Shown piece after piece: positions 6,614 through 44,063 of a stretch of 64,000 nt of DNA. Below the pieces are notes generated by a model, which was not told where the DNA came from, ran no database searches, and saw only the letters and a list, made by a program, of their open reading frames with translations. Position numbers and translations under genes: made by a program. Within the stretch, counting starts at the first letter, position 1, and every line of letters starts with the position of its first letter. The DNA is from a virus, in UHGV virus genome UHGV-0039337; one strand, 5' to 3'.

Positions 6614-7009
6614 TTAATTAATTTTTGATTTGTCTACATTTTCTAATAATGTAGTTCTTTTTTGTTCTATAAAATCTTGTGCTACTTGTTCAGTAGTGTC
6701 TAATACTTGTTGTGTTGTACGTATCATAGCATCTATATTTTCACCTAAAATTAAATCAGGTATAAAATCTCTGTATACTATTAATATATCTTTTAATGTT
6801 TTATTGTTTACGCCTGTAATAGATTCTCCTAGCGCATCATTTATTTCTATTAGTCTATCAATGCAAGTTAATGCTTCACTAGATAACTGTAAAGCTTTTT
6901 CCATTAAATTTACTACATATTGAGTATCATCATCTATACTTTCTGAATGCGCCGGAGACACCACGGCTTCTTTTTCAAACATATCTTCTTCAAAGATATC
7001 ATCACGCAT
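6614..7009 (-). CDS. hypothetical protein
   Basis: 131-aa ORF. Confidence 0.35.
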   Translation of the reverse strand: MRDDIFEEDMFEKEAVVSPAHSESIDDDTQYVVNLMEKALQLSSEALTCIDRLIEINDALGESITGVNNKTLKDILIVYRDFIPDLILGENIDAMIRTTQQVLDTTEQVAQDFIEQKRTTLLENVDKSKIN

Positions 7010-7045
7010 GCCTTCATCCTCCTTTTATAATTTATTTACATGCTA

Positions 7046-17702: not shown

Positions 17703-19595
17703 TTAATTACATTTACTGTATCCACAATTTACACAACTAATACATCCTTCAGTTTTTAATAGTGTTTTTTCTTCACATTCAGGGCATGTCATGTAATAAT
17801 CATTTGTTTCTTTAGCTGTTTCTGTTTTTTTAGTTTCTAATGGTTTAGACTTTTCTTTTTGTTGTATTGTTTTAATTTCTATTTCAGTATCATCATCAAA
17901 ATCTATAAATTCTTCCATGAATTGATTATGAGCATTTACTAATGCATAAGCTACTGCTGATGCACATGATGAACCTTTAGAAGTTGTTTTGTCTTTATAT
18001 TTAGAAATACTATATGATGGACATACTAAAGCTGATTCTAATTGATCTGCTATTTCTTCTACTGGTGCTCCTTTTCTTGCACATAGACTAGTAAGTCTAG
18101 ATACTGCATTTAATAAAGATAAACAACCACCTTTGCTTCCTTTATCTAAGAACACTTCACGTAATTCTCCAGTTTCAGGACAGAAATAGAAAGTACAATG
18201 CAAACTTCCACATCCAGTTTTAAGTTTTCTCTTAATACCGATTACGGAATCATCAACTAATATAGTATCTCCAAATTTAAGCATAGATTTAGCTTTTTCT
18301 ATTGGAGTTAGATTCGACTCTTTTTCTTCTTTTTCATTACTTACTGTAAGAATACCTGCTCTTTCACAGTTATTTCTATATATAGTTAATCCTTTAACTC
18401 CTTTTTCGGCACCATATAAATAAATTTCTTTTATTTGTTGTGGCGTAACATCTTCTGATAAATTGACTGTAGATGAAATCGATGCGTCTATATATTTTTG
18501 AATAGTAGCTTGTACATCTACTCTATTAAATGGATCTAATTGGTGTGTTGATATAAAGTATTCAGGTAAATCATTAGTATTACCTGTAACTTTTCTATAG
18601 TCTTCAACTATTTTAGCTTCTACTGTATAGTAAACATCTTCATCATGTAAGCTTTCAGTTTTTCTAGTATAACTATAAGCAAAATTAGGTTCTACTCCAT
18701 ATGAAGTATTAAGTAATCCAGCTACAGTTCCAGTAGGTGCTATTGTAGTTAATTGGCTATTAAATAGTCCATTTTGTAGCGCAGCTTTTAGTGTATTTGT
18801 TTCGTAATAATTTAGATTTCCAACTAAATTTTGTATTATATCTGATTTAAATGTTTTGTCTGCATCATAATTTTTAAATGGTGTGTTGCCTTCTATTTTT
18901 GCATAATCAGCACTAGCTATTATACTATTATATAATAAGGCAGTACCTATTGTTTCTATCACTAATAATGATTCTGACGAACCATAAGTTATTCCTAATT
19001 TTATTAAAGTATCTGCCAATCCCATTATTCCAAGTCCTATTTGTCTTAAATCGCCTACGGTTTTACGTTGTTCTTCTAATGGATGTAAAGGCATACCTTC
19101 TATTAATACATCATTTAATGCAAATATAGCTTTATGAATTACTTTTTTAAATTCATCGTAATCAAATCTAGCGTTTGGTGTAAATGGATCAATTATAAAC
19201 TCACTTAAATTAATAGCACCAAGCAAACATGAACCTCCTGCAGGAAGAGGTTCTTCAGCACATGGATTCACACCTACATAATTAAAATCATCATAATATT
19301 GCATTAAGTTATAATTTTGTATTTTATCCCAATAAAGAATTCCTGGTTCTGCCATTCTCCAATTGTTTAATGCTAGTTTATCCATGATTTTATTAGCGTC
19401 GATTAATTTTACTATAGTATTTCCATCTTCTAATTTAAATGTACAAGGATAACTCTCTTTATTTTTAACAGCTTCAATAAAATTACTATTTATCATAACT
19501 GAAATATTTGCTTTAGTTATGGCATTTAAATCTGTTTTTATATCTATAAATTCTTCAATGTCTGGGTGGCTTACATCCATGGATATCATGAGTGC
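17703..19595 (-). CDS. ribonucleotide reductase, class II-like (NrdJ-type) catalytic subunit, exon 2
   Basis: In-frame upstream extension ALMISMDVSHPDIEEFI (RNR RRGA-L-x-VxHPDI). Active-site finger NPCAEEPLPAGGSCLLGAINL. C-terminal CxxC...CxxC zinc ribbon and no RVCGY glycyl-radical motif, so not class III. Confidence 0.75.
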   Translation of the reverse strand, partial: ALMISMDVSHPDIEEFIDIKTDLNAITKANISVMINSNFIEAVKNKESYPCTFKLEDGNTIVKLIDANKIMDKLALNNWRMAEPGILYWDKIQNYNLMQYYDDFNYVGVNPCAEEPLPAGGSCLLGAINLSEFIIDPFTPNARFDYDEFKKVIHKAIFALNDVLIEGMPLHPLEEQRKTVGDLRQIGLGIMGLADTLIKLGITYGSSESLLVIETIGTALLYNSIIASADYAKIEGNTPFKNYDADKTFKSDIIQNLVGNLNYYETNTLKAALQNGLFNSQLTTIAPTGTVAGLLNTSYGVEPNFAYSYTRKTESLHDEDVYYTVEAKIVEDYRKVTGNTNDLPEYFISTHQLDPFNRVDVQATIQKYIDASISSTVNLSEDVTPQQIKEIYLYGAEKGVKGLTIYRNNCERAGILTVSNEKEEKESNLTPIEKAKSMLKFGDTILVDDSVIGIKRKLKTGCGSLHCTFYFCPETGELREVFLDKGSKGGCLSLLNAVSRLTSLCARKGAPVEEIADQLESALVCPSYSISKYKDKTTSKGSSCASAVAYALVNAHNQFMEEFIDFDDDTEIEIKTIQQKEKSKPLETKKTETAKETNDYYMTCPECEEKTLLKTEGCISCVNCGYSKCN

Positions 19596-20537
19596 CGATT
19601 GTACCGTTTCTTTCGAAATACTTTAACATCGTTTTATACGATCGGTCTAGACTATATCTTCAACTCATATTCTTTTACCGAATATGAGTTGCTTGGTACT
19701 TCCGGTCAGGATTTTCACCTAATTACCCGTACTCTACTCGGTTATTCTCTTAGATATTTCTTCTAAGATATCCTTTCGATAGTCGTTTGACTTTATTTTA
19801 TATTATATAGCTTCATAAGTTATTATATAGTTTTTTAATTTTCCTCTACTTGGCATAGGTTTTTTACCCTCTGCATATAATCCTAAAACCGTTATATTTC
19901 CCGCTGAATATCCAAAGTATCTTGCTAATTCTGATAGTGATACGAATTCTTTAATAAAGTTTCCTTCTCTATCATAAAGGTATACATGCTTATTGCAAGT
20001 ACAACAATCATCACCGTATGCTTGCTGTGTGTTTTCGGATATTGTGCCCCATTTTAGGTTTGTATAATGATTATTTAATTTATTGTTATCTAAATGTAAT
20101 ACTATAGGGTAATCATTTGGATTTTCTAAATAAGTCATAGCGACTAATCTATGCACCCTAAAATGTCTTCTTATTCCATCTTTACATACTAACAATAAAT
20201 CTTCATAACCATCTTTCATTATTCTTGTCGATAAAAACCTTTTTAATATTTTTGAATATATTTGCCCATCTTCGGTTATACTATAATAATCTTGTTTTAT
20301 ATTGAAGCAATCCAAATCTTTTATAAAAATCATCTCCTAATAATTTTTATAAGAAATGGCATAATATAAAATCTTAGCACAGGATTAGCATACCTATATG
20401 GCTTTAGCCTCCCCTGTTAGCACACTCATTAATAACCATTTCCTGTTATTACTAATATACGCTGAGTGTACACCCTAGTTTTTAGGTTCACCAAGTTTTT
20501 CATTATATATCACTATATAAAGGCGGCCGATATTTTA
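19596..20537 (-). mobile_element. group I intron (about 0.94 kb) in RNR gene at the RRG|A codons
   Basis: Exon 1 ends QKGRRG (GGT, U). Exon 2 begins ALMISMD after tcG. An HNH ORF lies in the middle, flanked by structured segments of about 205 nt (19596-19802 and 20334-20537). Confidence 0.65.
19803..20333 (-). CDS. HNH homing endonuclease (intron-encoded, HNH_3 type)
   Basis: 176 aa with RVHRLVAMTY...HLDNNKLNNHYTNLKWGTISEN, typical of phage HNH homing endonucleases. Confidence 0.75.
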   Translation of the reverse strand: MIFIKDLDCFNIKQDYYSITEDGQIYSKILKRFLSTRIMKDGYEDLLLVCKDGIRRHFRVHRLVAMTYLENPNDYPIVLHLDNNKLNNHYTNLKWGTISENTQQAYGDDCCTCNKHVYLYDREGNFIKEFVSLSELARYFGYSAGNITVLGLYAEGKKPMPSRGKLKNYIITYEAI

Positions 20538-20984
20538 ACCGCGTCTACCTTTTTGACCTATAAGTCCTGTTGTCATAGAATATAAATCCATAAAAGATAC
20601 TGCTCCTGATGTGGTTTTGGCTGCATTATGTACTGTAGCTTTATTTGGTCTAAGTTTTGATATATCAATTCCCACACCTCCACCATAGGAGAAAGTTCTA
20701 GCTAATTTTTTTGCCGTATCAAATATACTTTCTAAATTATCTTCAGGTGGTTCTAAAACATAACAATTAGAATAAGTTACTTTTGTTCCATTTTTTTGTA
20801 ATCCTCTATTAGCAAGTATTCTGCCTCCATATATAAATTTTTTATCAAGTATTAATTGCTGTACTTCTTTATCCCCGTTAGTTACTCTTTCTAAAAATTC
20901 ATCAAATGTTTCATTATTATATCTGTATTTTCTTTCATATTCACTTACAGATAGTTTTGATGTTAGCCATTCTTTTATATCCAA
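20538..20984 (-). CDS. ribonucleotide reductase exon 1 (N-terminal 149 aa)
   Basis: FSYGGGVGIDISKLRP ... SGAVSFMDLY ... QKGRRG are the conserved RNR N-terminal motifs. The ORF terminates right after RRG. Confidence 0.75.
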
Positions 20985-24336: not shown

Positions 24337-25545
24337 TTATTCTGTTATTGTTTCATCTAACATAGCTTCAAGTTTTTCCATTTCTTGTGCTTCACTTTCT
24401 GCTTGTTCTTTTAATTGCTTTACTTCATCTTCAGGTAAATCTTCTACAGCATAATTTCCTTCTACTTTAGATTTAAGATATTCAAAATATTCTGGATGTG
24501 CTTCTATATAGTTCATGAAAGCTGCTAGACCATTCCATTTAGCTACTGTACCATCTGGTAAAGTTCTTTCATTACCTTTTTCTTTTTCTCCAATTGCATT
24601 GTATTCTCTTATCCAAGCGCCTTTCTTTTCAACTATACCTGAATTAAATACTGCATCTATTATTTCTGGATTTCTATCTATACCACTTCCATATTTTACA
24701 TAGTATCCTATCTTAACATATGTATTTCTATCAGTGATACAATGGTTTTTAGTTACTTTTAAGTCTATTGTCATATATTGATCTTTTACGCTATATAGCA
24801 TATCTTTATTATCCATAAAACCTTTAGATAATTCTAAAGTAAGAACATTATTGTATCTTATTTGTTTACCGCCACCTATAAGTGCACCGGCTCTAGGACC
24901 TCCACCTATGTTGGTACTATAATGTTGAATAGTAATTAATGCAGTTCCTGAAGAGGCTATTATAGGTATAACCTTTCTCATAAATTTACTATTAACTCTA
25001 GCTTGTAATGCAACAGTATCATCTTTCATATCATTTTGAAACTCTTTAGTAGGAGTTAAACATTTTAGTGAGTTTATTACTATCATATCTACTCCAGTAT
25101 AAGCCATTCTTATAACATAATCCAGAACTTCTTCTGCTGTCATATCGTCAGTATTCATAAATATGAATCTGTCTTTTAAATCTTCATCGGTTATACCAAA
25201 CATTTTAATAGAAGTAGATTCTAATGAATTTTCACTTTCTATCCAACATCCAGTAAAATCAGGATCATTTTTAAGGTTATGCGCAATAGTTTCCAGCATC
25301 AGCATAGTTTTACCACTGTCAGGATTTCCTGCTACTAGAGTATATTTACTTCTAGGTATACCTCCACCTGTAGCTTCATTAACTCTCAATGATGGTGTAG
25401 GTATATATTCTATTACTAATTTTTCTGCTATGTCTTCATCATTAAGAGTACCTATGACTGTAGTACCTGCAGCTTTATTTATATCTTTAATAGCTTCTCC
25501 TATCAGTTTTTTTCTTTCTGCTAGGCTTTTACGTTTTATCGCCAT
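24337..25545 (-). CDS. RecA/UvsX-family recombinase
   Basis: 402 aa. IPTPSLRVNEATGGGIPRSKYTLVAGNPDSGKTMLMLE aligns with RecA ISTGSLSLD.ALG.GG.P.GRI.EI.GPESSGKT. Confidence 0.75.
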   Translation of the reverse strand: MAIKRKSLAERKKLIGEAIKDINKAAGTTVIGTLNDEDIAEKLVIEYIPTPSLRVNEATGGGIPRSKYTLVAGNPDSGKTMLMLETIAHNLKNDPDFTGCWIESENSLESTSIKMFGITDEDLKDRFIFMNTDDMTAEEVLDYVIRMAYTGVDMIVINSLKCLTPTKEFQNDMKDDTVALQARVNSKFMRKVIPIIASSGTALITIQHYSTNIGGGPRAGALIGGGKQIRYNNVLTLELSKGFMDNKDMLYSVKDQYMTIDLKVTKNHCITDRNTYVKIGYYVKYGSGIDRNPEIIDAVFNSGIVEKKGAWIREYNAIGEKEKGNERTLPDGTVAKWNGLAAFMNYIEAHPEYFEYLKSKVEGNYAVEDLPEDEVKQLKEQAESEAQEMEKLEAMLDETITE

Positions 25546-25562
25546 ATAATCTCTCCTTTCAA

Positions 25563-25910
25563 TTAATTAATTTTATTTATATAATCATTTAATGATTTTA
25601 TAAGCTCGTCTATTTCTTTTGTAAGAGATTCAGGTGGCGCTGAATTAAAACTTTTATAATAACTATCTACAATATTTTTTTTACGTTGTTCTAATATATA
25701 TACATTAGCTCTAAAAATTGGTTTTGCTGCATTCATATTTACGCTTTTATCTTCTGTCTCTATATATTGTATTAATTCTTCAAGGAAAAGAGCTACAACA
25801 TTACGTACAGCATCTTTTCCTTCATACATCGAAGAAGAAGCAGCTACGCCTATAAAATTAGTTATAGCTGCTCTTAATGATTCTTGTTCATTTGTATATG
25901 GTTTTGCCAC
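25563..25910 (-). CDS. hypothetical protein
   Basis: 115-aa ORF. Confidence 0.35.
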   Translation of the reverse strand: MAKPYTNEQESLRAAITNFIGVAASSSMYEGKDAVRNVVALFLEELIQYIETEDKSVNMNAAKPIFRANVYILEQRKKNIVDSYYKSFNSAPPESLTKEIDELIKSLNDYINKIN

Positions 25911-28342
25911 TATTCCTCTACCTCTTCTATTTGCTCTTCAGGTAAACAAGTAACAGCTACTACATAGTCGTCTTTATCTAAGTTAATTAATTTAGTGCCT
26001 GTAGTATGTCTACTAGAATGAGCAATATTATTCGCATCTATTCTTATAGTTTTGCCATTAGCTGTAGCTATAAGTATATTAGCATTATCTAATATAAACG
26101 CAGATACAACAGGACCTGTTTTATCACTTACTTTATGACAGAAAATACCTTTGCATCCTCTAGACTTAGAAGCAAATTCTTCTTCATTAGTTGCTTTAGC
26201 TATACCATATTTAGTTACAGTAACTACTTCTGTATTAGAATGCATAGATAATATACCTATTACTTCGTCACCTTCACTTAGTTTTATACCTTTAACACCT
26301 CTAGCTGATCTACCACTAGGTCTTACTGTATTAGAGTTGAATCTAGTAGATAAACTATTAGCAGTAAGTATCATAACTTCTTCGTCGTCTTTAGCTAATA
26401 AAGCTCCTACTACTTCATCATCATCTACTAATCCCATTACTTTAGTAACGTTAAATCTATTAGATAATTGTGCTAATGCTAAACGTTTTATTTGTCCTTT
26501 TTTACTTACAAGAACAAGATAGCGTTCTTTGTCATTAAGATTAGTAGCTAATGTTTTAATAGGATACTCTCCTTCTTCCATAGATACAAAGTTAGCTAAA
26601 TTTTTACCACGAGAGGACTTATTTACTTTAGGTATTTTATATGCTTTAACTGTATGACATCTACCTGTATTAGTTATAAATAATAAGTCATCTTTACTGT
26701 TAATAGTAAATAAATCTACTACTAATTCATCGTCTTTAGTATCGGCTCCTTTAGAACCTTTACCAGCTCTTCTTTGTTTATTATATTCATTAGTAGCTAC
26801 AGATTTTATATTTTGATCACTTGTAACAGTAACTATTAATTCTTCATCTTTAATTAGATCTACTAATTCTATTTCATCTTCTAGCTCTATTGCTGTACGT
26901 CTTTCATCTCCATATTTATTTTTCATTTCGGTAAATTCTTCTATTAATTGTTTTAATATTACTTCGTCGTCTTTTGTTAGGTTTATTAAATGAGGTAGTT
27001 GTTCATACATATTAGATAAATCTGTTTCTACTTTTTCTTCAGATACTTTAGACAATCTTGATATTTTCATATCATATACATATTTAGCTTGTTCTTCTTC
27101 TAAGTCAAGTTCATCTTGTAATGATTGTATAGGATTATCTTCTTCTCTTATAATATGAATAACTTTATCTATATTTTCTATAGCTTTTTGTACGCCTTCT
27201 AATATTAATATATTATGATTTAATTTAGTTAAATCATATTGAGAGCGTCTGCGTACTATTTCCATACTGTGTATAATAAATTGTTCAAGACAATCAAGTA
27301 TGCCGAATTCTTTAGGCATTCCGTCTAATAATGCTTTAACATTATAATTTATAGATATTTGTAAATCTGTTTTAGATAATAAATGTTTTATTACTAAATC
27401 TGGATTAGCACTTTTTTTAAGTTTAATTTGTATATTACAGTTTTCTGTACGTTTAGTTACATCTAAAACTTCACGTATGCCTTCTACTTTATTATCTATA
27501 CGTAAATCATCTATTTTGTTTACTAGTTTTAATTTATTTACTTGGTATGGTAGTTCTGTAATTCTAATTATTTTATTATGTCTTTTATCTTCTTCTATAT
27601 CGTATTTACATCTTAAAATTACTTTTCCTTTACCTTCGCTTATTATTTTAAGCCATTCTTTATTAGAAGTTATTATTCCCCCATCTGGAAAATCTGGGCC
27701 TTTTATTATTTTAGCTATATCACTACATTCATACTCTTCATCTTTTAATGCTTTATCTATCATAAATAATATCGCATCATATATTTCTGTTAAATTATGA
27801 GGTGGTACATAAGTAGACATAGACACGGCTATACCGTTTGTTCCATTAGCTAAAAAGTTAGGCAATAAAGATGGTAACGTCATAGGTTCTTTTAAAGTAT
27901 TGTCAAAGTTATCCATATAATTAACAGTATCTTTTTCTATATCTTTACATACAGCATCTCCATATTTAGATAAATGACATGTAGTATATCTATAAGCGGC
28001 AGCTTTAAATCCATCTCTATTACCAAATGAAGTAGTTGTATCTATTAAAGGATATCTCATTACCCAATTTTGTCCTAATCTGGTAAGCGCATCATATAAT
28101 GAGATATCGCCGTGTGGATATGTCGTTGCTAATACTGAACCTACTACTTTTGCACATTTTTTTTCTGGATCTGTACTTTTCATTCCATGAGTATACATAT
28201 CCCATATTATTTTTCTACCTGATGGTTTTAATCCCGTATTTACATCAGGTATTGCTCTATCTCCTATAACAGCTAATGCATAAGCTTTATATCTAGGAGC
28301 TAGAGCGTCGCCTACTGATTTTTCTATAATATGTTCAGCCAC
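25910..28342 (-). CDS. gyrA: type II topoisomerase subunit A (GyrA-like, with C-terminal beta-pinwheel region)
   Basis: 810 aa. AIPDVNTGLKPSGRKIIWDMY and VVGSVLATTYPHGDISLYDALTRLGQNWVMRYPLID match the GyrA signatures (R.LPDVRDGLKP..R, HPHGD). Confidence 0.8.
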   Translation of the reverse strand: MAEHIIEKSVGDALAPRYKAYALAVIGDRAIPDVNTGLKPSGRKIIWDMYTHGMKSTDPEKKCAKVVGSVLATTYPHGDISLYDALTRLGQNWVMRYPLIDTTTSFGNRDGFKAAAYRYTTCHLSKYGDAVCKDIEKDTVNYMDNFDNTLKEPMTLPSLLPNFLANGTNGIAVSMSTYVPPHNLTEIYDAILFMIDKALKDEEYECSDIAKIIKGPDFPDGGIITSNKEWLKIISEGKGKVILRCKYDIEEDKRHNKIIRITELPYQVNKLKLVNKIDDLRIDNKVEGIREVLDVTKRTENCNIQIKLKKSANPDLVIKHLLSKTDLQISINYNVKALLDGMPKEFGILDCLEQFIIHSMEIVRRRSQYDLTKLNHNILILEGVQKAIENIDKVIHIIREEDNPIQSLQDELDLEEEQAKYVYDMKISRLSKVSEEKVETDLSNMYEQLPHLINLTKDDEVILKQLIEEFTEMKNKYGDERRTAIELEDEIELVDLIKDEELIVTVTSDQNIKSVATNEYNKQRRAGKGSKGADTKDDELVVDLFTINSKDDLLFITNTGRCHTVKAYKIPKVNKSSRGKNLANFVSMEEGEYPIKTLATNLNDKERYLVLVSKKGQIKRLALAQLSNRFNVTKVMGLVDDDEVVGALLAKDDEEVMILTANSLSTRFNSNTVRPSGRSARGVKGIKLSEGDEVIGILSMHSNTEVVTVTKYGIAKATNEEEFASKSRGCKGIFCHKVSDKTGPVVSAFILDNANILIATANGKTIRIDANNIAHSSRHTTGTKLINLDKDDYVVAVTCLPEEQIEEVEE

Positions 28343-28356
28343 GCTATCTTCCTCCC

Positions 28357-28752
28357 CTATAATATCGTATAATCTTCTTCAGACATTATATATTGTCTTT
28401 TTTCTGTATTCATTACTTTGCTATTCATACACATAGAAACTATTTTATTAGCTTCTTCTGCGTCTTCAATTGTTATTTTAATTAGTGTTCTATGTTCTGG
28501 ATTCATAGTTGAATCCCATAAACCTTCTGCTGATAATTCACCTAATCCTTTTAAATAAGTTATATTTAATTTTTTATTAGGATATTGTTGTTTAATAGAA
28601 TTTAATTCAGCATCATCTATAGCATATAACGTAGTATTTTTATCTACTATAATCTTATATAATGGTGGGCATGATAAATATAAATAACCTTCTTCTATTA
28701 TAGGTCTAAAATATCTATAAAATAATGTTATATACAAAGTAGCTATATGATA
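28357..28752 (-). CDS. gyrB: type II topoisomerase subunit B (GyrB-like), exon 3 (C-terminal about 131 aa)
   Basis: In-frame extension GYHIAMYITLFYRYF...LSCPPLYKI...YLKGLGELSAEGLW matches the GyrB C-terminus (GSHIRTLLLTFFYR ... PPLYK ... YKGLGEM). Confidence 0.75.
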   Translation of the reverse strand, partial: YHIATLYITLFYRYFRPIIEEGYLYLSCPPLYKIIVDKNTTLYAIDDAELNSIKQQYPNKKLNITYLKGLGELSAEGLWDSTMNPEHRTLIKITIEDAEEANKIVSMCMNSKVMNTEKRQYIMSEEDYTIL

Positions 28753-30013
28753 ACCCGATTACACCCTCGGTTTCCCGATATTTATCAGGGGTCTAGACTA
28801 TACCTTCGCCATTTCAGGCGCACTGAACGTAGTCGTTGGACTCCTCCTGTTCGGAGTCGGCTGCTGATTTTCCATTAATTCACCCTTAGCACGTATTTAA
28901 TAATACGCTTTTGTCTCAGCTTAGGTAATCCTCAATACTTTTTTCTGCTTTCGCAACATTCATATAAGTTTGTTTCATCTTATATTGTAGTGATTAAGGC
29001 TTTAGGAATTCCCAGCAAGCGGTCAGTGTAATAATCCTATAGGTTATTATTCCCTATAAGACGACTATATTTATAAATTAATTATATTTTAAATAGAGAT
29101 TTAAATAACGTTCAAATTTGCGTTCCATATATATAGTACAATCTAAATATAACCAACTCATTATTTGATATACTTGATTATCACCACATAATCTTAAACT
29201 TTGAACGTTTCCGTCTCCGTTTTTATGTCTTTTTTGTAATTTTACATTCTCTTTATTTAAAATTGTTTTAAGCGTTTCTAAAAATTCTGTAGTACCTAAT
29301 ATACTAATATCATAAGTATGATATTTTTTATCTCCTGATATTGACAGAGATCCATCTCCATCAAAATATCCTCTAATAAAATGTCTTTGTAATTCTTTTG
29401 GTACTATATCCTCTGAAGGAAATAAACAATGATTGGTTTTATCAAGGCTAAAACCTTTATTAACTAAATCTTGATACATCTTTTTGCTAGTTATAACCAT
29501 TTTTGACTCTCTTGTAATACAATCAAAACTTTTATTGTAATGTTCATAATCTCTTATTGGATACGTAGAGTCTATATCTTTTTTAAATTTTTCTATCATA
29601 TTACGATCTTTTGTGGCTAACGTTAATCCTATTTCATTCCCTCTATTTGTTATATATCCATCAGCCATTAAAAAACCCAACCAATAAGCTTTATGTTCTG
29701 TATCAATAACTTCAAAGTAATTATCATTTACTTTATTTCTTCTTAAATCATCAGGACTTTTCTTTTGATATAGTCCTGCTTTAATTAAAACTGGATAAAT
29801 AGTTTGAGGTTTTCTATCTTTTAACGATTCTTTATTCTCACAAATCCATTTTACGCTATGTCCCTCTTTATATTTATTGCATATCCATTTTTTATCTTCT
29901 TCAGAAAATGATTTTCTTATTCTTTTTGTCAATATATTCACCCCAATATTTAGTTTCTTTATCTAAATATTACGGTGAACGTAGACGCTTATAATAATTA
30001 TTTATAAATCTTA
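28753..30013 (-). mobile_element. group I intron (about 1.26 kb) in gyrB at the Toprim DxDxD|G codons
   Basis: Exon 2 ends DADVD (GAT, U) followed directly by a stop. Exon 3 begins GYHI after tcG. A LAGLIDADG ORF starts about 72 nt into the insert. A 325-nt structured block 28753-29077 lies 3' of it. Confidence 0.65.
29078..29941 (-). CDS. LAGLIDADG homing endonuclease (intron-encoded)
   Basis: 287 aa with YWLGFLMADGYI and FIRGYFDGDGSL. Same family as the UvrD- and clpX-intron HEGs. Confidence 0.85.
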   Translation of the reverse strand: MNILTKRIRKSFSEEDKKWICNKYKEGHSVKWICENKESLKDRKPQTIYPVLIKAGLYQKKSPDDLRRNKVNDNYFEVIDTEHKAYWLGFLMADGYITNRGNEIGLTLATKDRNMIEKFKKDIDSTYPIRDYEHYNKSFDCITRESKMVITSKKMYQDLVNKGFSLDKTNHCLFPSEDIVPKELQRHFIRGYFDGDGSLSISGDKKYHTYDISILGTTEFLETLKTILNKENVKLQKRHKNGDGNVQSLRLCGDNQVYQIMSWLYLDCTIYMERKFERYLNLYLKYN

Positions 30014-31194
30014 ATCAACATCGGCATCGCTCATTATTATTATCTTATGATATCGTAAGTTATCTATATTAAAATCTTCACCTATACCACACTCTAAACT
30101 ATATAATATATCTTTTAATTTATCAGATGATAATACTTTATCTAAAGTCATTTCTTCTACATTTGGTATTTTCCCGAATACAGGTAATATTGCTTGAGTA
30201 TTCTTGTCACATGCGGTAGTTGCTGTAGAAGCTGCACTATCACCTTCAACTAAAAATATTTCGCAAGCTTCAGGATCTTTACTAGCACATTTTACTAATT
30301 TTTCAACTTTTTTATTAGCGAAATTTTTATTCTTTCTTGCAGCTTCTTTTGCTTTATAGGCGGCTTCTCTGATCTTGTTTGATTCAATAACTTTATTAAG
30401 TATATTATCTTTATCATTCGGTAGTTTATCAAATTGATCTTCACAAAACTCCTTTACTTCACTATACAATATGCTTGCTATTACAGGCATATTTAAATAA
30501 TCTTTTCCTTGTCCTATATAGTTAGGATCTGGTACCTTGACACTAACTACTGCTATTATACCTTCACGTGTGTCTTCTGCTGTTAATTGTGTTTTAGATT
30601 TAGGATATTCATTTTCAAAGCAATCTTTAACAGCTGTAGCTATACCACGTTTAAATCCTGTTATATTAGAAGATTTACCATCGGTATTTATAACATTATT
30701 AGTAAACGCTATTATATTATCACTATAAGCCTGAGTCCAAGCAAAAGCTACAGATATTTCACACGATTTATCATTATCCATTTCAACTGATTTAGTTAAG
30801 AACCAAGGATCATGAATACTTTCTTTGTTAGCTGTAAGTTCTTCAACATATGCTTTAACACCCTCTGGATAATTATAGATTTCATGTATGTTATAGTCCC
30901 CATATTCTATATCTACTTTAATAGTAAGTTCAGGATTAAGATAGCATATTTGTTTCATTCTGCTATTAATAGCTGGTATATTAAAATCATCTTTATCAGC
31001 CCATATTTCAGGATCTGGTTCACATTGTATAAGAGTCATAGTAAAGTCTTCACGTGATATTTCTTCTACTTCGTGTAATTTATGAGTCACTAATCCTTGT
31101 TCAAATTCCATATCATATACTTTACCACCAGTATATATTTCAACATGGAACCATTTAGATAAGAAGTTTATACATGATGCTCCTACGCCATTTA
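30014..31194 (-). CDS. gyrB: GyrB-like subunit, exon 2 (ATPase C-part, transducer, Toprim start)
   Basis: The frame extends upstream of the first Met to NGVGASCINFLS (GyrB HGVGVSVVNALS). Contains EGVKAYVE, DTREGIIAVVSVKVPDPNYIGQGKD, and Toprim EIFLVEGDSA ... KIIIMSDADVD. Confidence 0.75.
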
Positions 31195-31869
31195 CAATAG
31201 TTCACATAGGTTCGCTATTCCTATGCCGCACTATTACGTGCAGCCTCTAGTTTTCACTAGGGATCGGACTATATCATCACCCTTTAATAAGGGGTTCTCC
31301 ATTTCCATTTAATAGGTAATTAAGAGCCTTATTACGGCTCACCTAACCGCTTGGCTGTACTCTACTCACTTCTGTTACTATCAGAATCGCTTTCGATAGT
31401 CTCTGAACTTTCATTTATTCCATTTAAATAACCAAATTCTTGTTCTTTTTCTCTTCTAAAATCAATACACATCTGTTTAGCTTGTTCATAACCATATTTT
31501 TTACACGATCTTGATATTCTACATTTTTTATGTTCATTATCTTTTATTTCTGCAATCCAAGAATCTCTACTTTTATCATATCTTACACCTTTTATTCCGC
31601 TTGTGTTACATTCTCTTAATGATGTATTTTTTAAATTTTCGTGTCTTGTTGTTATTCTTAAATTGTTTTTACGATTATCCAGACCGTTATGATTTAAATG
31701 ATCTACAACAATGTCGTAACCTTCTACGTCTAATATTAATCTGTGCAAATATATTGGTTATATAAAATAAATGTTTAGCTGCTGATTGCCATATGCTTAT
31801 GCACTTAGGTTTCCAGCAATTAAAAGAATTTTTCGATACACATTACTGCGTAAAGGGACTAAATAGTTA
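31195..31869 (-). mobile_element. group I intron (about 0.68 kb) in gyrB ATPase-domain codons (..SAGL|NGVG..)
   Basis: Exon 1 reads K-S-A-G-L then a stop 2 codons later. Splicing GGAT|TAAATGGC restores AGLNGVGAS, which is colinear with GyrB GGLHGVGVS. The 5' exon ends in U and the intron ends in G. An HNH-AP2 ORF sits in the middle, with structured flanks 31195-31361 and 31749-31869. Confidence 0.6.
31362..31748 (-). CDS. HNH homing endonuclease with AP2-like DNA-binding domain (intron-encoded)
   Basis: 128 aa. DHLNHNGLDNRKNNLRITTRHENLKN (HNH_3) followed by GVRYDKSRDSWIAEI (AP2-like). Confidence 0.7.
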   Translation of the reverse strand: MHRLILDVEGYDIVVDHLNHNGLDNRKNNLRITTRHENLKNTSLRECNTSGIKGVRYDKSRDSWIAEIKDNEHKKCRISRSCKKYGYEQAKQMCIDFRREKEQEFGYLNGINESSETIESDSDSNRSE

Positions 31870-32236
31870 ATCCAGCTGATTTAACACCTTCTTCAAATTT
31901 AGTACCAGCTTTTAATCTAGACATACATAATTCAGCTATGGTACATCCTGGTATTTCATCTGATTCTTCTGTAGGTAACGCACCTGCGCTATCTGTTACT
32001 GTTATCCATCCTTGTTTATCTATATTTACTGTTATCTCTTTCTTGGTATATAAATGACTACTTTCGTCATTAACTAGAATATCTACACCATTATCTACTA
32101 ATTCATATATACAATAGTCTTTATTTGGTATATACATTCCCGGTCTAAGTCTTACGTGTTCTCTGTCGTCGAGAAGTTTAAAATCATCTGCTTGTCTTAC
32201 TTTTTTAACCATTTTAGGTTTTTTAATTTTACTCAA
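31870..32236 (-). CDS. gyrB: GyrB-like subunit, exon 1 (N-terminal ATP-binding about 122 aa)
   Basis: DDFKLLDDREHVRLRPGMYI, ELVDNGVD, ITVTDSAGALP, AELCMSRLKAGTKFEEGVKSAGL match the GyrB N-terminal motifs (RKRPGMYIG, E.VDN..DE, V.DNGRGIP, HAGGKFD..YKVSGGL). Confidence 0.75.
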
Positions 32237-32251
32237 TCTATCACCTCATAA

Positions 32252-32527
32252 CTATATATCTTGTTCTAACCATTTTGAATAATCAAACATTTTACTACTA
32301 TCGTGATTTATTTCTAATAATATTTTTTTAAAATATTTATATAATGCATATTCATCATATTCATTTAATATAACAACAGGTATATTTACTATTTTGTATT
32401 CCACTTTATTTATTGTTAATTCTATATGAAAAAATTCTACACCTTTTTCTTTTAACAATTCTTTCATAAAGTTAGTATCTAATTCAGTATATTCTCCTGA
32501 TATTGTTTTTGTATATGTTCTAATCAT
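32252..32527 (-). CDS. hypothetical protein
   Basis: 91-aa ORF. Confidence 0.3.
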   Translation of the reverse strand: MIRTYTKTISGEYTELDTNFMKELLKEKGVEFFHIELTINKVEYKIVNIPVVILNEYDEYALYKYFKKILLEINHDSSKMFDYSKWLEQDI

Positions 32528-33312
32528 TTATTAAACACTTCTTTAAATGCTTTATGATTTTCTGAACTTTTATTTGGTATAGCAAATACTATAGTCTTAA
32601 ATAACTTAGGATATTTATCTAATATTTCTTTAAAGATTTTGGCTACTTCATATGGATCTTGTCCAAATACACCGCATCCATAAGCTCCTAGTATTAAAGT
32701 ATTTACATCATTCTTTACAGCCATGTCTATTATAAATTTTATTCTGCTTTTTAATACTTTATAATTTTCTTTGTTAGATACATTGCAATATTTCTGTGCT
32801 GCAGTTTTATTAGGCGCTGCACATGTTATAACATCACAATATACATATCTATCTTCTCTTTTAAATAATACATCTGGAGTGTATAATCCTCTGTTAAGAT
32901 ATAATGCTTTGTTCTTATGTTGATTATTCAATGAATAAAAGTCAGGTATTTCTTTTAATACATTATACAAATATGATTCATGACATAAGCATTCTTCTTG
33001 TGCTTTTGATCCTTTTAAAAACATACCGCCTGGATTCTTATATGAAGAAAAATTTAACACTGCAGTTATTTCATCTTTGTATTCAAATATTGCAGTTACA
33101 CTATCAAGATCACATATTATAATGTCAGCGTTTTTATCACGATTATTGTATTTTTCTAGTTCCATATTAAAACCTGTATTATATAAGTATGTCTCATCTA
33201 TACAGTCTTTAATTTCTTCTTTAAATTTTTCTTCCATTTGTTCAGTATGTTTTTTTGCTACTTGTGCTCTTTGTTCTTTATTGATCCAATATTGAGAAGT
33301 ATTATAAGCCAT
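32524..33312 (-). CDS. macrodomain protein of the microbial PARG-like family (DUF2263 / TIGR02452-like)
   Basis: 262 aa. LNFSSYKNPGGMFLKGSKAQEECLCHESYLY ... CAAPN ... LILGAYGCGVFGQDP fits the DUF2263 signature (NFAS..NPGGGFL.G..AQEE.LCR.S.LY ... AAPN ... LVLGAWGCGVFGNDP). Confidence 0.6.
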   Translation of the reverse strand: MAYNTSQYWINKEQRAQVAKKHTEQMEEKFKEEIKDCIDETYLYNTGFNMELEKYNNRDKNADIIICDLDSVTAIFEYKDEITAVLNFSSYKNPGGMFLKGSKAQEECLCHESYLYNVLKEIPDFYSLNNQHKNKALYLNRGLYTPDVLFKREDRYVYCDVITCAAPNKTAAQKYCNVSNKENYKVLKSRIKFIIDMAVKNDVNTLILGAYGCGVFGQDPYEVAKIFKEILDKYPKLFKTIVFAIPNKSSENHKAFKEVFNK

Positions 33313-33478
33313 TACTTATCGCACCTTTCTATTTTATATTCTATTATTTTTCTGGCATATTTATCATTTAGAAGTAATGAATCACGGATTAATTCATGAA
33401 TATATTTTATAGGTCCCATACCATAAAATTTATATTCATTACTATTGTCATATCTCAAATATATTCTGTACATCATTA

Positions 33479-33904
33479 TTAATTACCTTCATCATCTATT
33501 TCGTCTATTAAGATTGTACCTTTAATAGTTGATATTGCTGCTGTTATTAAAGTTTGTACAGTTTCTTCTCTTGTAAATTGCCCTTCTAAAGGTGCAGAAT
33601 ATTTAGCTGGTCTATATTGTTTGCCTTGTATTTTATTAGCGTCTTCCATATGATATACGTTGATTACGAATATATTTACTATCGGAGTACCATTTTTATG
33701 ATCTATGCTTTGCCCGTCATATATAAATACATATGGTTCTTCATCTCCGTGTTCATTAACTATATATTCTTCTATTTTGCCTTCCCACATAAGTCTGTTA
33801 GCTAATTCTTTAGCTACTGCTCTTATTTCTTCATGCATTTTTATATCGCTGTCTATTTCAGCCCATCCAGCTTTTAAAATTTTATTAATAGTTTCATTAT
33901 CCAT
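33479..33904 (-). CDS. hypothetical protein
   Basis: 141-aa ORF. Confidence 0.35.
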   Translation of the reverse strand: MDNETINKILKAGWAEIDSDIKMHEEIRAVAKELANRLMWEGKIEEYIVNEHGDEEPYVFIYDGQSIDHKNGTPIVNIFVINVYHMEDANKIQGKQYRPAKYSAPLEGQFTREETVQTLITAAISTIKGTILIDEIDDEGN

Positions 33905-33971
33905 TATATCACTCCTTTAAAAAGATAATTAAGGCATAGACAACGCAGTGTCATCTATGCCTGTTTAGCCA

Positions 33972-34406
33972 TTATTTAGCTACAGCTGGTTTCTTTATTC
34001 CTGGTTTACCTGGTTTAGAAGGTTTAGTAGCTGCTGGTTTAGTAGCTCTATGACGTTCTGTTGTAGGTGCTTCTCCATTATCAGTAGTTTTAGCACTATC
34101 TAAAACATTTAAAGTATTTACATGACATTTAGTAAATGTTCTATTTTCTCCTTCTTCGTTTTGATATTGGTCTACTCTCATTTCACCATCTATTTCTACT
34201 AATCTTCCTTTAGTTACATAGTTACTTATGAATTCAGCAGTTTTTCCAAATGCTTCACATGGTATAAAGTCAGCTGGTCTATTACCATCTTTATCTTTAT
34301 AGTTTCTATTTACTGCAACAGTAAATTTAGCTACCATATTATTTTCTCCTATTGCTTTCACTTCTGGGTCTTTACAAAATCTTCCAGTTAATACTAATTT
34401 ATTCAT
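33972..34406 (-). CDS. ssb: single-stranded DNA-binding protein (SSB, OB-fold)
   Basis: MNKLVLTGRFCKDPEVKAIGENNMVAKFTVAVNR...DFIPCEAFGKTAEFISNYVTKGRLVEIDGEMRVDQYQNEEGENR is the canonical SSB OB-fold pattern. Confidence 0.75.
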   Translation of the reverse strand: MNKLVLTGRFCKDPEVKAIGENNMVAKFTVAVNRNYKDKDGNRPADFIPCEAFGKTAEFISNYVTKGRLVEIDGEMRVDQYQNEEGENRTFTKCHVNTLNVLDSAKTTDNGEAPTTERHRATKPAATKPSKPGKPGIKKPAVAK

Positions 34407-34559
34407 TTTAAATCTCCTTATATTTGCAGGGCGTCACCTGCTACCTTTAATTATTTTTTTATTTTTTACATTAAAAAAGCCACCATGGGCTTGTCCATTT
34501 AAGCAAAATTTACTAAGGCTGGACCTTGCCTATTTTATTACATGTATAATATATGCTTC

Positions 34560-35222
34560 TTATTCTTCATCGTCATTAGGGAATATAAAATCAAATAAAG
34601 CTTCTGCATTAGCATCATCTATAAAATCTGTGCTATGCTCTATAGCATTTATTTCAAGATTACTAAAGTCTACTATATATGCTATTAATTGTTGTTCTGT
34701 TAATACAGTTGCCATACATGCAGCATATGCTCTAGGTAATCCTGGATTCATGTAATTAAATTTTTCTTTATATGCTTCAAAACATTCATTTTCTGTTAAA
34801 TATAATCCTATAGAATCAGCTGTATTTTCATCTAATCCTTCATCTTTTAATTCATTATAAGCATCTGTTATATCTACTTCTTCATCGTTGTCATTTAACA
34901 CTACTCTTACAACTTCTGCATCTTCAAATATTTTATCAGCATTTTTAACATTAGTAGAATCTTCTTCTACTGTTTCAGTCTCAGCAGTTACATCTTCAGG
35001 TTCTTCTACGTCTTCAACTATAGATTCTTCTATTTCATCTTCTGCTAATTCTTCTTCGTGTACTATACCAGTTGGTATATTTGATACAGTGCACATATCA
35101 ATGAATATTTCAATGTACTTACCTCTAAGTTCTGCTCTCTTAGCAACATCTTCTACGCTTTCTAATTCTTCTGCCATTTTGTCTAGTTGGCTAACTATAT
35201 AATCTTTTTGTTTTTTATTCAT
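34560..35222 (-). CDS. hypothetical highly acidic protein
   Basis: 220 aa with a Glu/Asp-rich central repeat. Confidence 0.35.
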   Translation of the reverse strand: MNKKQKDYIVSQLDKMAEELESVEDVAKRAELRGKYIEIFIDMCTVSNIPTGIVHEEELAEDEIEESIVEDVEEPEDVTAETETVEEDSTNVKNADKIFEDAEVVRVVLNDNDEEVDITDAYNELKDEGLDENTADSIGLYLTENECFEAYKEKFNYMNPGLPRAYAACMATVLTEQQLIAYIVDFSNLEINAIEHSTDFIDDANAEALFDFIFPNDDEE

Positions 35223-35380: not shown

Positions 35381-36250
35381 TTATTCAATTGCTTCTTTTG
35401 CTGTTTCTCTTAATATATCTACTGTTAAATCTTCACGTACTATTACTTTTTTTACTGTAGGATCTCCTGGAACCTCAAATTTGGTTTCAAATAATATATC
35501 TTCCATTACTGTTCTTAATGCTCTAGCACCCATTTTTCTTTCTTTTGCTTTTTGTGCTATTTTAGGCAATGCACCTTCTTCTATGTCAAAATCTATACCA
35601 TCCATTTTAAATTCTTCTTTATATTGTTTTAATAAAGCATGTTTAGGTTGAGTTAGAATCTTAACCATGGCTTCTTCACTTAATTCATGATATACAGCTA
35701 ATAATGGACATCTGCCTATAACTTCTGGTATTATACCAAATTCTACTAAATCATCTGGTATGACTTGAGATATAACATTATTATAATCCATTTCTCCTTT
35801 TGATTCTGGCTTACCATTAAACCCTATGCCTACAGATCCTTTTTTAAGTCTTTTATTTATTATTTCTTCTAGACCTACAAATGCTCCACCTAATATAAAT
35901 AATATATTAGTAGTGTCTATTTTAACGCTTTTAGAATCTAATTTATTTAATTTAACGTCCATTTCGCAGCCTTCAATCATTTTTAGTATAGATTGTTGTA
36001 CTGCTTTACCGTTAACATCTTTGTTATCTCCTCTTGCATCAGATGCTTTAATTTTGTCAAATTCATCTATAAATACTATTCCTTTTTGTGTTTTTTCTAC
36101 GTCTCTACCTGCTGCGATATATAAATCTTTTATCATATCCTCTGTATCACGTCCAACATATCCTGTGCTTGAGAAAGAACTGGCGTCTTGTATAGTAAAT
36201 GGTATATCCATACAAGAACATATAGCTCTTATGGTTTCACTTTTCCCACT
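35381..36250 (-). CDS. clpX: ClpX ATPase, exon 2
   Basis: In-frame extension SGKSETIRAICSCMDIPFTIQDASSFSSTGYVGRDTE...GIVFIDEFDKI aligns with ClpX [37 protein letters not shown]...GIVYIDEIDKI. Confidence 0.8.
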   Translation of the reverse strand, partial: SGKSETIRAICSCMDIPFTIQDASSFSSTGYVGRDTEDMIKDLYIAAGRDVEKTQKGIVFIDEFDKIKASDARGDNKDVNGKAVQQSILKMIEGCEMDVKLNKLDSKSVKIDTTNILFILGGAFVGLEEIINKRLKKGSVGIGFNGKPESKGEMDYNNVISQVIPDDLVEFGIIPEVIGRCPLLAVYHELSEEAMVKILTQPKHALLKQYKEEFKMDGIDFDIEEGALPKIAQKAKERKMGARALRTVMEDILFETKFEVPGDPTVKKVIVREDLTVDILRETAKEAIE

Positions 36251-37441
36251 CGTTCGTTATTAGCGCATAGTTTTTTATCTATGCCTCTGGGCCATTACAG
36301 CCATTTTCATCGGTGTGTTAATTCACACTCAGTCTAGCGTACTTGTTTACGTAATTTACTTGGACAAAACGTAGGACGGCCTCTTGGTGCATTATTTCAG
36401 CACTACGCGTTGCGCCTGACGTGTTGACATATCAACACTCACTATATCACTATAGCTTATCCACTTTTATAGTGGCGCCTTCGGGCTCGAATACACTGTA
36501 TGCAATTTACAATCATACTTTACGTGATCTTCGCTTAATTCCATCCTCATAATCTAGAGTCTTCATTGTCCTTTTGGCTCTAGACGGCAGTAATCTAAGT
36601 ATTTTTTATATTTTCTATCTAAATATATTGTAGCATCTTTATATAACCATTTTAAAAATGCTTCTAACGCTTTAGTACTTGATATATTTAATTCAGGTAT
36701 TTTATAGTCATATTCATAAATTCTAATATGATCTATGGTTTCTTCAACATTATATTTAATAGTTTCTATTAATGATTCTAAAACTGTTCTATCATAGCAT
36801 ATAATTCTAAAAGTAGTACTACCTTTAGTTCTTATGTTTAGGTTTCCATCTCCATCGTATAATCCTCTTATAAAATGATTCATATATTCATTAGGTATAT
36901 CTGGAACAACCCATCCATATGTTTTGTTATGCACTACTCCTAGTTCTTTTAATTTTGTTGCTATAATTTTATCTCTTATATTTATTCTATAATAATCAGT
37001 TCCATTTATTGTTTTTATTCCTACTTTGTGGCTGCTTTCTATATCTGCTTTAAATTTTTCTATGTGTTCTTTATCTTTTATACATATGTCGAGTCCTCCA
37101 TCTTCTGATAAATATCCATCAGCAAATATAAAACCTAACCAATAAGCACTTTTTTCATTCCATTCATTAAAGAAATTACTATTAACTGATTTTTTATTAT
37201 AATGTTGAACTATATTAACACCTGCGGCTTTCATTCTAATAGAAAGCGTACCTCTGTCTCTTTTTAACTGTTTTGCTATTTTAGTAATACTTAAGCCTTC
37301 ATTAAACATATTAGTGGCTTGTTGTATCTCTTCATCTGATATCCTCAAGATAATCACTCCATATTGTGTATTTATCTCTATATTACCGCTACCAGATGAT
37401 CTAATAGAAAATATTGTAAATTTTACTTAGATTATTTGTTT
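36251..37441 (-). mobile_element. group I intron (about 1.19 kb) in clpX inside the Walker A codons (GPTG|SGKS)
   Basis: Exon 1 ends GPTG (GGT, U) then KQII-stop. A LAGLIDADG ORF starts about 84 nt into the insert. The 312-nt structured block 36251-36562 shares the core (ggacggcctcttggtg ... ctacgcgttgcgcctg) with the UvrD and AAA+ introns. Exon 2 begins after acG. Confidence 0.65.
36563..37357 (-). CDS. LAGLIDADG homing endonuclease (intron-encoded)
   Basis: 264 aa with YWLGFIFADGYL and FIRGLYDGDGNL. Over half its residues look identical to ORF 4044..4850 by eye. Confidence 0.85.
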   Translation of the reverse strand: MIILRISDEEIQQATNMFNEGLSITKIAKQLKRDRGTLSIRMKAAGVNIVQHYNKKSVNSNFFNEWNEKSAYWLGFIFADGYLSEDGGLDICIKDKEHIEKFKADIESSHKVGIKTINGTDYYRINIRDKIIATKLKELGVVHNKTYGWVVPDIPNEYMNHFIRGLYDGDGNLNIRTKGSTTFRIICYDRTVLESLIETIKYNVEETIDHIRIYEYDYKIPELNISSTKALEAFLKWLYKDATIYLDRKYKKYLDYCRLEPKGQ

Positions 37442-37843
37442 ACCGGTTGGGCCTAAGAATATAATATTTGATTTATCTATTCTTAATTTATTAGATGCAC
37501 TAGGATCTTCTTCTAATCTTTTTATTCTTTTAGTATGAGAATATAGTTCTGTTGCTATAGTTACTTTAGGTCTTTCTTGTTCTATAACCCAATCATCAAG
37601 ATATTTCTTTATATCTCTTGGAGTATTTATTTCAGTTTTTGCTTGTTCACTATCTTTTTCTAATAAAACTTTTTGTCTTTCTTCAAATTTTTCATATCCT
37701 AATTTTAAACAATTAGAACATATTCTTATCTTTTTGCCATCTACATTTGCTTTAGATTTGTATAAAACAATACCTTTTTCACTTAATTCTTCTTCAGTAT
37801 ATTCTTTACCACAGAAATTACATTTTTTAGTATTCTCAGCCAT
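37442..37843 (-). CDS. clpX: ClpX ATPase, exon 1 (zinc-binding N-domain to Walker A start)
   Basis: CNFCGK...CSNC zinc finger. RDIKKYLDDWVIEQERPKVTIATELYSHTKRIKRL...KSNIIFLGPTG aligns with ClpX PKEI...LD.YVIGQE.AKK.L.VAVYNHYKRL...KSNILLIGPTG. Confidence 0.8.
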
Positions 37844-43979: not shown

Positions 43980-44063
43980 TGGAGCCAATAGTAGGAATTG
44001 AACCTGCATCTGTAAAGATAAAATAAATTATTTTTACCGTTCTTACAATTGAACTATATCGGC
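43980..44063 (-). tRNA. tRNA-like gene with encoded CCA and atypically expanded anticodon arm (identity undetermined)
   Basis: The minus strand reads GCCGATA-TA-GTTC-AATTGTAA-GAAC-G-[GTAAA-16nt-TTTAC]-AGAT-GCAGG-TTCAATT-CCTAC-TATTGGC-T-CCA. The acceptor, D-arm and T-arm (GTTCAATTC T-loop) are good. The anticodon region is 26 nt instead of 17. Confidence 0.5.

Follow-up and report, generated by a model that had tools for sequence, protein, structure and literature searches.

The phage genome UHGV-0039337 was analysed over a stretch of 64,000 nucleotides (hereafter the window), and a gyrB-like gene on its minus strand, between positions 32236 and 28357, was found to be interrupted twice. We put the probability at about 0.9 that the interruptions are two independent mobile group I introns in the B-subunit gene of a phage type IIA topoisomerase, and that the pre-mRNA would be spliced to encode one protein of 648 amino acids (aa). 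The original prediction, made from the sequence alone, had proposed three gyrB exons separated by two classic intron-like inserts, at AGL^NGVG in the ATPase domain and at DADVD^G in the Toprim motif (a caret marks a splice junction throughout), and both the arrangement and the two sites agreed with our results, each insert being a group I intron. Its boundaries at 31869, 31195, 31361/31749 and 29077 were also recovered, and only the 3' end of the second insert was moved by 3 nt, from 28753 to 28756. The parts of the gene and its partner are as follows.

31870..32236, minus strand: exon 1, 122 codons plus 1 nt, TTG start at 32236, ending ...GCT GGA T
31195..31869, minus strand: intron 1, 675 nt, group I with an IA2-type topology, starting UAA and ending ...CUAUUG
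31362..31748, minus strand: open reading frame (ORF) of intron 1, 128 aa, HNH_3 and AP2 domains, TTG start, in the middle of the intron in the P6a loop
30014..31194, minus strand: exon 2, 1181 nt, encoding the remainder of the ATPase lid, the transducer domain and the beginning of Toprim as far as DADVD (assigned from Pfam DNA_gyraseB and Toprim and from the alignment to 6rks_B)
28756..30013, minus strand: intron 2, 1258 nt, group I, starting UAA and ending ...UAAUCG
29078..29941, minus strand: ORF of intron 2, double-motif LAGLIDADG (LGFLMADGY and IRGYFDGDGS), near the 5' end of the intron
28357..28755, minus strand: exon 3, GYHIATLYITLFYR... to the stop codon, end of Toprim and GyrB C-terminal domain (Pfam DNA_gyraseB_C)
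25910..28342, minus strand: gyrA-like partner, directly downstream of gyrB and unsplit (Pfam DNA_topoisoIV, 401 bits, and DNA_gyraseA_C)

From 32236 to 28357 the DNA contained five consecutive minus-strand ORFs, and nearly all genes of the window lay on this strand.

ORF 1 of 5, minus strand: 125 aa, ending ...KSAGLTI and a stop
ORF 2 of 5, minus strand: 128 aa, HNH_3 and AP2 domains
ORF 3 of 5, minus strand: 366 aa, DNA_gyraseB and Toprim, ending ...SDADVD and a stop
ORF 4 of 5, minus strand: 287 aa, LAGLIDADG_3
ORF 5 of 5, minus strand: 126 aa, GyrB C-terminal domain (Pfam)

The GyrB frame was open for 27 codons 5' of the first ATG of the 366-aa ORF (NGVGASCINFLSKWF...) and for 6 codons 5' of the TTG that starts the last ORF (GYHIAT...). 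When 32236-31870, 31194-30014 and 28755-28357 were joined, 1947 nt in frame encoded a 648-aa protein of the GyrB/ParE type. A GAGGTG Shine-Dalgarno sequence was located upstream of the TTG at 32236, and the orthologues P0001-P0012 start with MSKIKKPK at the equal position. The joined protein matched Escherichia coli GyrB (6rks_B) with an E value of 8e-104 over residues 17-566 and 577-630 (phmmer), and the alignment was free of gaps over both junctions (saglNGVGas against sgglHGVGvs, and sdadvdGyhi against tdadvdGshi). GHKL ATPase, transducer, Toprim and C-terminal tail were found in this one chain, encoded beside a GyrA/ParC gene, and judged by its sequence the product is a phage-encoded, bacterial-type GyrB/ParE-like B subunit of type IIA topoisomerase.

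About 5.8 billion proteins were searched, and uninterrupted orthologues of 648-650 aa with 79-93% identity were found, which read KSAGLNGVGASCINFLS and IIIMSDADVDGYHIATLYITLFYR without a break (KSAGLNGVGAS and SDADVDGYHIA). The DNA of two orthologues, L004 and L005, showed the matching gene order (PARG-like gene, 91-aa gene, gyrB, gyrA). Both read GCTGGAT^TAAATGG over the junction of intron 1, and L004 read GATGTTGAT^GGTTATCAT over that of intron 2, in each case as predicted for ligated exons; GCTGGATTAAATGGTGTAGGA and GATGCTGATGTTGATGGTTATCAT are the uninterrupted target sequences in these two genomes. As the alleles agree with the predicted ligation at every base, both introns are delimited to the single nucleotide. 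Both inserts are preceded by U, have an in-frame TAA as first codon and end in G, the 3' ends reading ...CUAUUG^UAAAUGG for intron 1 and ...UAAUCG^GGUUAU for intron 2, so that an omega G is present in both. The two-intron gene was also found in an independent assembly of 269,929 bp (L003, 98% identity over 8.6 kb), and the exon 2 product occurred on at least eight contigs.

Synonymous differences were observed beside both sites. At 31186-31188, 3' of intron 1, the window has GGC and the intron-less alleles have GGT or GGA; at 30021-30032, 5' of intron 2, the window has AGC GAT GCC and L004 has AGT GAT GCT. Such differences could be marks of co-conversion or of target-site immunity.

The elements of the intron 1 ribozyme, including the internal guide sequence (IGS), are listed below.

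P1: GGAU^UA/UAGUCC, IGS at 31861..31856, minus strand, with a U.G pair at the 5' splice site
P10: AUUUA with UAAAU of the 3' exon, 5 bp
P3: UUCU/AGAA
P4-P5: 31818..31780, minus strand
P6a: 31773..31766 with 31419..31412, minus strand
R element: GUUCAGAGACUAU, 31408..31396, minus strand
P7.1 and P7.2: UUCUG/CAGAA and AGGU..GAGCC/GGCUC..ACCU, between GACUAU (31396) and the AGAA of P3'
P8: 31293..31280, minus strand
S element: GAUAUAGUCC, 31275..31266, minus strand

A sensitive blastn search with the ORF-less intron 1 returned matches in 566 phage records. The window sequence was compared with three others, namely an intron that a Vibrio phage carries in its ribonucleotide reductase (RNR) small-subunit gene (L010), an intron in an N4-like RNA polymerase (RNAP) gene (L011), and, in Staphylococcus phage SEP1, an endolysin intron whose removal is part of the annotation as a spliced join (L012). 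RNAalifold on the four sequences gave 62 pairs, 33 of them with compensatory changes. MAFFT had moved one homologue by one column at P3/P4, so the helices were checked sequence by sequence rather than by a column-based pair count, and all helices from P1 to P9.2 were retained in the three other phage introns despite altered sequence. The U.G pair at the splice site was present in all four; P3 read UUCU/AGAA, GCUA/UAGC or CCUU/AAGG at equivalent positions; P5a, P6a, P7.1, P7.2, P8, P9, P9.1 and P9.2 were preserved through differing sequences (P7.1 and P7.2 both covaried in L010 and L011), and P7 was invariant. The folding z-score of the ORF-less intron was -2.99.

The order P7, P7.1, P7.2, P3', P8 is the IA2 arrangement. 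The T4 nrdB intron, in its 5' part, was 83% identical to nucleotides 14-60 of intron 1 (47 nt), and on sequence and predicted fold intron 1 is classed as a T4 nrdB-like IA2-type group I intron. It resembles the IA2 introns of T4 nrdB and td (which carry I-TevIII and I-TevI) in the order P7, P7.1, P7.2, P3', P8, P7', in an ORF looped out of P6a, in a 3' tail of the ...CUGAAC(N)AUUG type and in the U.G 5' splice site. It differs from them in its host, which is gyrB and not a gene of nucleotide metabolism, and in its enzyme, in which HNH is fused to AP2 and the coding tail overlaps P7/P7.1. IA2 introns make up over half of the viral group I introns (PMC11835236).

For intron 2 the following elements were assigned.

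P1: GAU^UA/UAGUC, IGS within 29070..29060, 3' of the ORF, minus strand
P2: 29060..29036, minus strand
P3: 29028..29023 with the 3' part of 28838..28821, minus strand
P4: 29017.. with 28867.., minus strand
P6: 28856..28844, minus strand
P7: GACUA/UAGUC, 28838.. and 28804..28793, minus strand
P8: 28820..28807, minus strand
P9: 28791..28763, minus strand

As the guide UAGUC lies 3' of the ORF, the LAGLIDADG gene and a 72-nt leader lie in the loop of P1. P3' follows directly after P7, hence P7.1 and P7.2 are missing, and P5 carries an extension of about 160 nt with a GAAA tetraloop; an exact search with a 29-nt P5 pattern gave no match. The ORF-free cores of four homologues were aligned on the canonical P1-P9 structure with its P3/P7 pseudoknot, and 93.8% of the cells were paired, compared with 31-40% when the partners were slid; none of 500 shuffles was as good. 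Changes on both sides were found in 22 of 73 pairs, including two in P3 and two in P7 (GACUA/UAGUC to GAUCA/UGAUC), and P1 was invariant among the four. The minimum free energy fold of the ORF-less intron yielded P2, P3, P4, P5, P6, P8 and P9a unaided (z -3.94). RNAalifold paired the 5' splice-site strand with the 3' strand of P7, because the IGS and P7' both read UAGUC; the canonical P1 and P7 covary and were preferred to this pairing.

The two ORFs were placed by Pfam as had been predicted, the HNH-AP2 ORF in the middle of intron 1 and the LAGLIDADG ORF near the 5' end of intron 2. The former scored 51.7 bits for AP2 (cut-off 33.3) and 25.6 bits for HNH_3 (cut-off 24.8), the HNH_3 match covering profile positions 19-45 of 46, and the last ~20 codons at its 3' end span P6a', J6/7, P7 and P7.1. 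Its best phage match was the HNH-AP2 endonuclease of the RNAP-beta intron of Bacillus phage AR9/PBS1 (45% identity), to which it aligned only over residues 116-223 of 225. The latter reached 49.5 bits for LAGLIDADG_3 against a cut-off of 22.5, in two stretches containing the two motifs, and its true start is likely the conserved TTG at 29932 behind GGGGUG, which would give 284 aa. With the ORF that occupies this site in L007 it shared 81% identity, although the host proteins were only 47% identical. Its best annotated relatives were the intron-encoded endonucleases I-MsaII of Staphylococcus phage MSA6 and the "mobile intron protein" of Bacillus phage 0305phi8-36 (DNA polymerase III alpha).

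An Rfam scan of the ORF-free parts had been proposed as a check on the prediction. In such narrow scans RF00028 (Intron_gpI) matched intron 2 with 35.2 bits (E 1.5e-7, full-length model, 28773..29085, minus strand) and intron 1 with 27.9 bits (E 1.3e-5, 31245..31375, minus strand, model positions 191-253). Several points weigh against two functional mobile introns. Both scores were below the 50-bit gathering score of RF00028; a scan of 27500-33000 (5.5 kb) was empty at E<=1, and a scan of the entire window at gathering thresholds gave only a tRNA-like match. Only four sequences per intron underlie the covariation. For intron 2, a P10 was sought and no convincing one was found, P1 needs a loop of about 950 nt that includes the ORF, and another potential guide, GCGUC, occurs upstream of the ORF. 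The HNH-AP2 ORF is without the N-terminal 60-115 residues of all its relatives, including the HNH ORFs of L010-L012, no obvious Shine-Dalgarno sequence was seen before it, and with its tail overlapping P7/P7.1 intron 1 may no longer be mobile. Splicing itself we infer from the sequence, as we do endonuclease activity and homing.

The 5.5-kb negative is attributed to filtering and to the insertions rather than to absence, since the matches appeared in narrow scans of the ORF-free 3' parts. Score is lost to the inserted ORFs, to the 160-nt extension of P5 and to the P7.1/P7.2 inserts, and the 50-bit threshold is a limit set for a single generic model rather than a criterion of biology. Both introns have a U.G pair at the 5' splice site in P1, an omega G and a covarying P3-P8/P4-P6 core. 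Related intron cores were present in the gaps of split genes in hundreds of phage records (terminase, DNA polymerase, RNR, endolysin and RNAP). Exact junctions, intact covarying cores and the precedent of the gut jumbo phages, described below, together argue for splicing.

The introns were then compared with each other and among sister genomes. Local alignment of the two gave a best E value of 0.16, with nothing significant beyond 10-nt core motifs; the shared universal motifs are AAUCAGCAGC and the AUAGUC strand of P7. Both introns were present in the window and in L003, only intron 2 in L006, and neither in L005 and L004. Given the lack of significant shared sequence beyond the core motifs and the independent presence or absence in sister genomes, the introns appear to have been acquired separately, as the original prediction had concluded from their different architectures. 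Its description of the introns as unrelated was right as to sequence similarity, periphery and endonuclease families, but both are members of one ribozyme class with core motifs in common.

Over window positions 25400-35200, L006 and L005 proved to be the same phage as the window. The flanks of L006 were 97-100% identical, and nt 0-1050 of its gyrB, a block without intron 1, were only 50-75% identical. In L005, a block from about nt 1200 of gyrB to about nt 1050 of gyrA was 52-68% identical and without intron 2; intron 1 was absent as well, despite an exon context of 99-100% identity. Intron 2 was identical in L003 and L006 (1258/1258), and the intron sequences differed by 0-1 nt between independent assemblies. 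The two introns are thus independently present or absent, and each site falls inside an allele block exchanged among genomes that are otherwise nearly identical.

In the proposed mechanism, gyrB would be transcribed as a single pre-mRNA in which both introns adopt group I ribozyme folds. Guanosine would attack 3' of the U in the U.G pair of P1 (GGAU^ in intron 1, GAU^ in intron 2), the released 5' exon would attack after the terminal G of the intron, and the ligated mRNA would be translated into one 648-aa protein, whereas on unspliced RNA ribosomes would halt at the UAA that opens each intron. In a mixed infection, the endonuclease would cut an intron-less allele and repair would copy in the intron together with flanking exon sequence.

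These elements might also be decayed, one or both introns splicing inefficiently and the gene being a pseudogene or weakly expressed in this lineage. The endonuclease of intron 1 looks truncated at its N-terminus and may be inactive, a remnant by analogy with T4 I-TevIII, described in the T4 record as a defective HNH enzyme that carries a deletion within its proximal half; the sister genomes have swapped in divergent intron-less blocks, and the Rfam scores are sub-threshold. Against this, none of the exons is damaged or out of frame and the catalytic motifs are conserved, every core helix is intact in the window copy, the partner gyrA is intact, and the two-intron allele is carried on at least eight contigs with the near-identity of intron sequence given above. 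We regard decay as quite improbable.

Another explanation is that homing endonuclease gene (HEG) cassettes split gyrB into three separately translated polypeptides, which would assemble without RNA splicing. Models for genes in pieces are gp39/gp60 of T4 and the NrdA of Aeromonas phage Aeh1, split by mobE. The gene callers of public assemblies indeed gave three separate products here, of 125, 366 and 126 aa, along with two "endonucleases", and split topoisomerase and RNR subunits occur in T4-like phages (PMC3045599). However, the first in-frame start of exon 2, ATG at 31111, lies 27 codons past the junction, so that NGVGASCINFLSKWFHVEIYTGGKVYD would be lost, including nearly invariant glycines of the ATP lid, and exon 3 would lose the six conserved codons of GYHIAT and has no Shine-Dalgarno sequence. 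Moreover, about 290-330 nt of non-coding sequence per insert are kept as a covarying group I core, for which a bare HEG has no need. Separate translation of the pieces was considered very improbable, and spliced group I introns remained the preferred reading.

Next to no weight was given to other intervening elements: a translational bypass, which the original prediction had mentioned for T4 gene 60 as a contrast only and which is inapplicable here, would face inserts of 675 and 1258 nt against the 50-nt gap of that gene, and for group II introns neither a model match nor a reverse transcriptase was found. Inteins are known in phage gyrase genes, such as gyrA of the Staphylococcus jumbo phage DC4 (PMC10638138), and LAGLIDADG and HNH domains also occur in them, but an in-frame TAA opens both inserts, many stops follow, the HEG ORFs are unfused to the exons, and the Pfam search gave no Hint domain. 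An assembly artefact was also considered and rejected.

Homologues of intron 2 were found at three staggered sites of the Toprim motif.

L007: intron 2 homologue at the same site, SDADVD^G, in a host protein of 47% identity
L008: intron 2 homologue, 6507-7704, at SD^ADSDG, with a LAGLIDADG ORF in P9
L009: intron 2 homologue, 2706-3041, at SDAD^VDG, 336 nt, without an ORF

This ribozyme family follows three successive GAT codons of the Toprim motif, the SDADVD^G site being used in the window, L006 and L007, and at all three sites P1 pairs only with the exon triplet GAU. The endonuclease of L008 was only 32% identical to that of intron 2. The staggered sites fit a shift of site by reverse splicing or an exchange of endonucleases, between which four sequences cannot separate. 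Tentatively, one ribozyme lineage might have colonised three Asp codons of the catalytic Toprim motif in related jumbo phages and, together with the allele blocks, have left a record of site-hopping and of endonuclease-driven allele replacement in an essential gut-phage gene, a view we hold with clearly less than even confidence. In two relatives, P0029 and P0065 (on ~270-kb and 45-kb contigs), the GyrB homologues stop at ...YLKGL inside the conserved KGLGE motif, which suggests a further insertion site in relatives.

Other split genes were observed in the window. The RNR large-subunit gene (17703-20984, minus strand) is split by a third group I intron.

20984..20535, minus strand: RNR exon 1, Pfam barrel profile 1-76
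20333..19803, minus strand: RNR intron ORF, HNH_3 and NUMOD1
19789..19626, minus strand: RNR intron, Rfam Intron_gpI, 25.9 bits, E 2.6e-4
19661..19650, minus strand: RNR intron S element, GAAGATATAGTC
19589..17703, minus strand: RNR exon 2, profile 81-523 and TSCPD

A ClpX-like ATPase gene (35381-37843, minus strand) also appeared to be split.

37843..37427, minus strand: first ClpX-like piece, weak ClpX zinc finger
37357..36563, minus strand: ORF with LAGLIDADG_3 and HTH_38, 32% identical to the intron 2 enzyme
36211..35381, minus strand: second ClpX-like piece, beginning at AAA_2 profile position 33

No Rfam match was obtained at E<=0.01 in this split region, which holds either an intron missed by the model or a free-standing HEG insertion. 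At 43983-44063 (minus strand) Rfam gave a tRNA with 47.7 bits, above its gathering score, and ARAGORN found no tRNA anywhere in the window.

The genes of the neighbourhood encode SSB, PARG-like, GyrA, RecA, DNA ligase, RNR, ClpP, ClpX-like ATPase and PhoH proteins. The lineage is that of an uncultivated phage of ~270 kb and ~28% G+C, with at least one relative from a gut metagenome. Against phage genomes, megablast with the 4-kb region returned no more than three matches, of 36-47 nt, and that collection does not include the phage of the window; the best tblastn identity of the spliced protein was 37%, and a scan of IMG/VR with this protein gave no match.

The core of intron 2 is related to introns of Herelleviridae and other Firmicutes phages (Twort/K/SEP1-type), which lie in terminase, endolysin, polymerase and recA genes and carry LAGLIDADG or HNH ORFs, with matches in 263 phage records, mostly from Staphylococcus, Enterococcus, Listeria, Bacillus, Brochothrix and Lactococcus phages. 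The P7'-P9 end of intron 2 was 94% identical to the end of an intron that interrupts the terminase gene in Staphylococcus virus PSU6 (L001). In that Twortvirinae genome, the terminase large subunit (900-3050) is annotated as four coding sequences with three gaps, each with a group I-like core ending in the CCC..AAAUAUCGGGAAACCGAGGGU P9 element, as in intron 2 of the window. The three PSU6 introns have inserts of the P7.1/P7.2 type after P7, whereas intron 2 has none and instead shows a long P5 extension; its ORF lies within the loop of P1.

Essential phage genes that harbour mobile group I introns encoding HNH or LAGLIDADG enzymes are textbook knowledge (T4 td/nrdB/nrdD, SPO1, Twort-type, AR9 and Jug phages). 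According to the text consulted on the Jug phages, whose genomes are large and gut-associated, many essential genes, among them terL, nrdD and DNA polymerase, are split by group I introns and HEGs, and metatranscriptome reads confirmed splicing for 37 of 76 predicted group I introns (PMC12880540). In the window, too, at least three genes and probably four are split, but that clade is given as 360-402 kb, compared with ~270 kb and ~28% G+C for the lineage of the window, and topoisomerase is a conserved core gene there that the same text does not name among the split genes. A non-exhaustive search of the literature yielded no phage gyrB described as carrying a group I intron. The host gene and the insertion sites may thus be new, while the kind of element is well known.

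The understanding of how such introns work is unchanged by these results. For annotation, the correct product of the gene would be a single 648-aa subunit and not three GyrB fragments. A type IIA topoisomerase gene would be added to the phage genes targeted by mobile group I introns, and the insertions fall in the ATP lid (GxxGxG) and the Toprim DxD, the two motifs of this protein that are most conserved. With both introns, one or none, with staggered sites and divergent blocks, the sister genomes provide a natural experiment on homing, co-conversion and endonuclease resistance.

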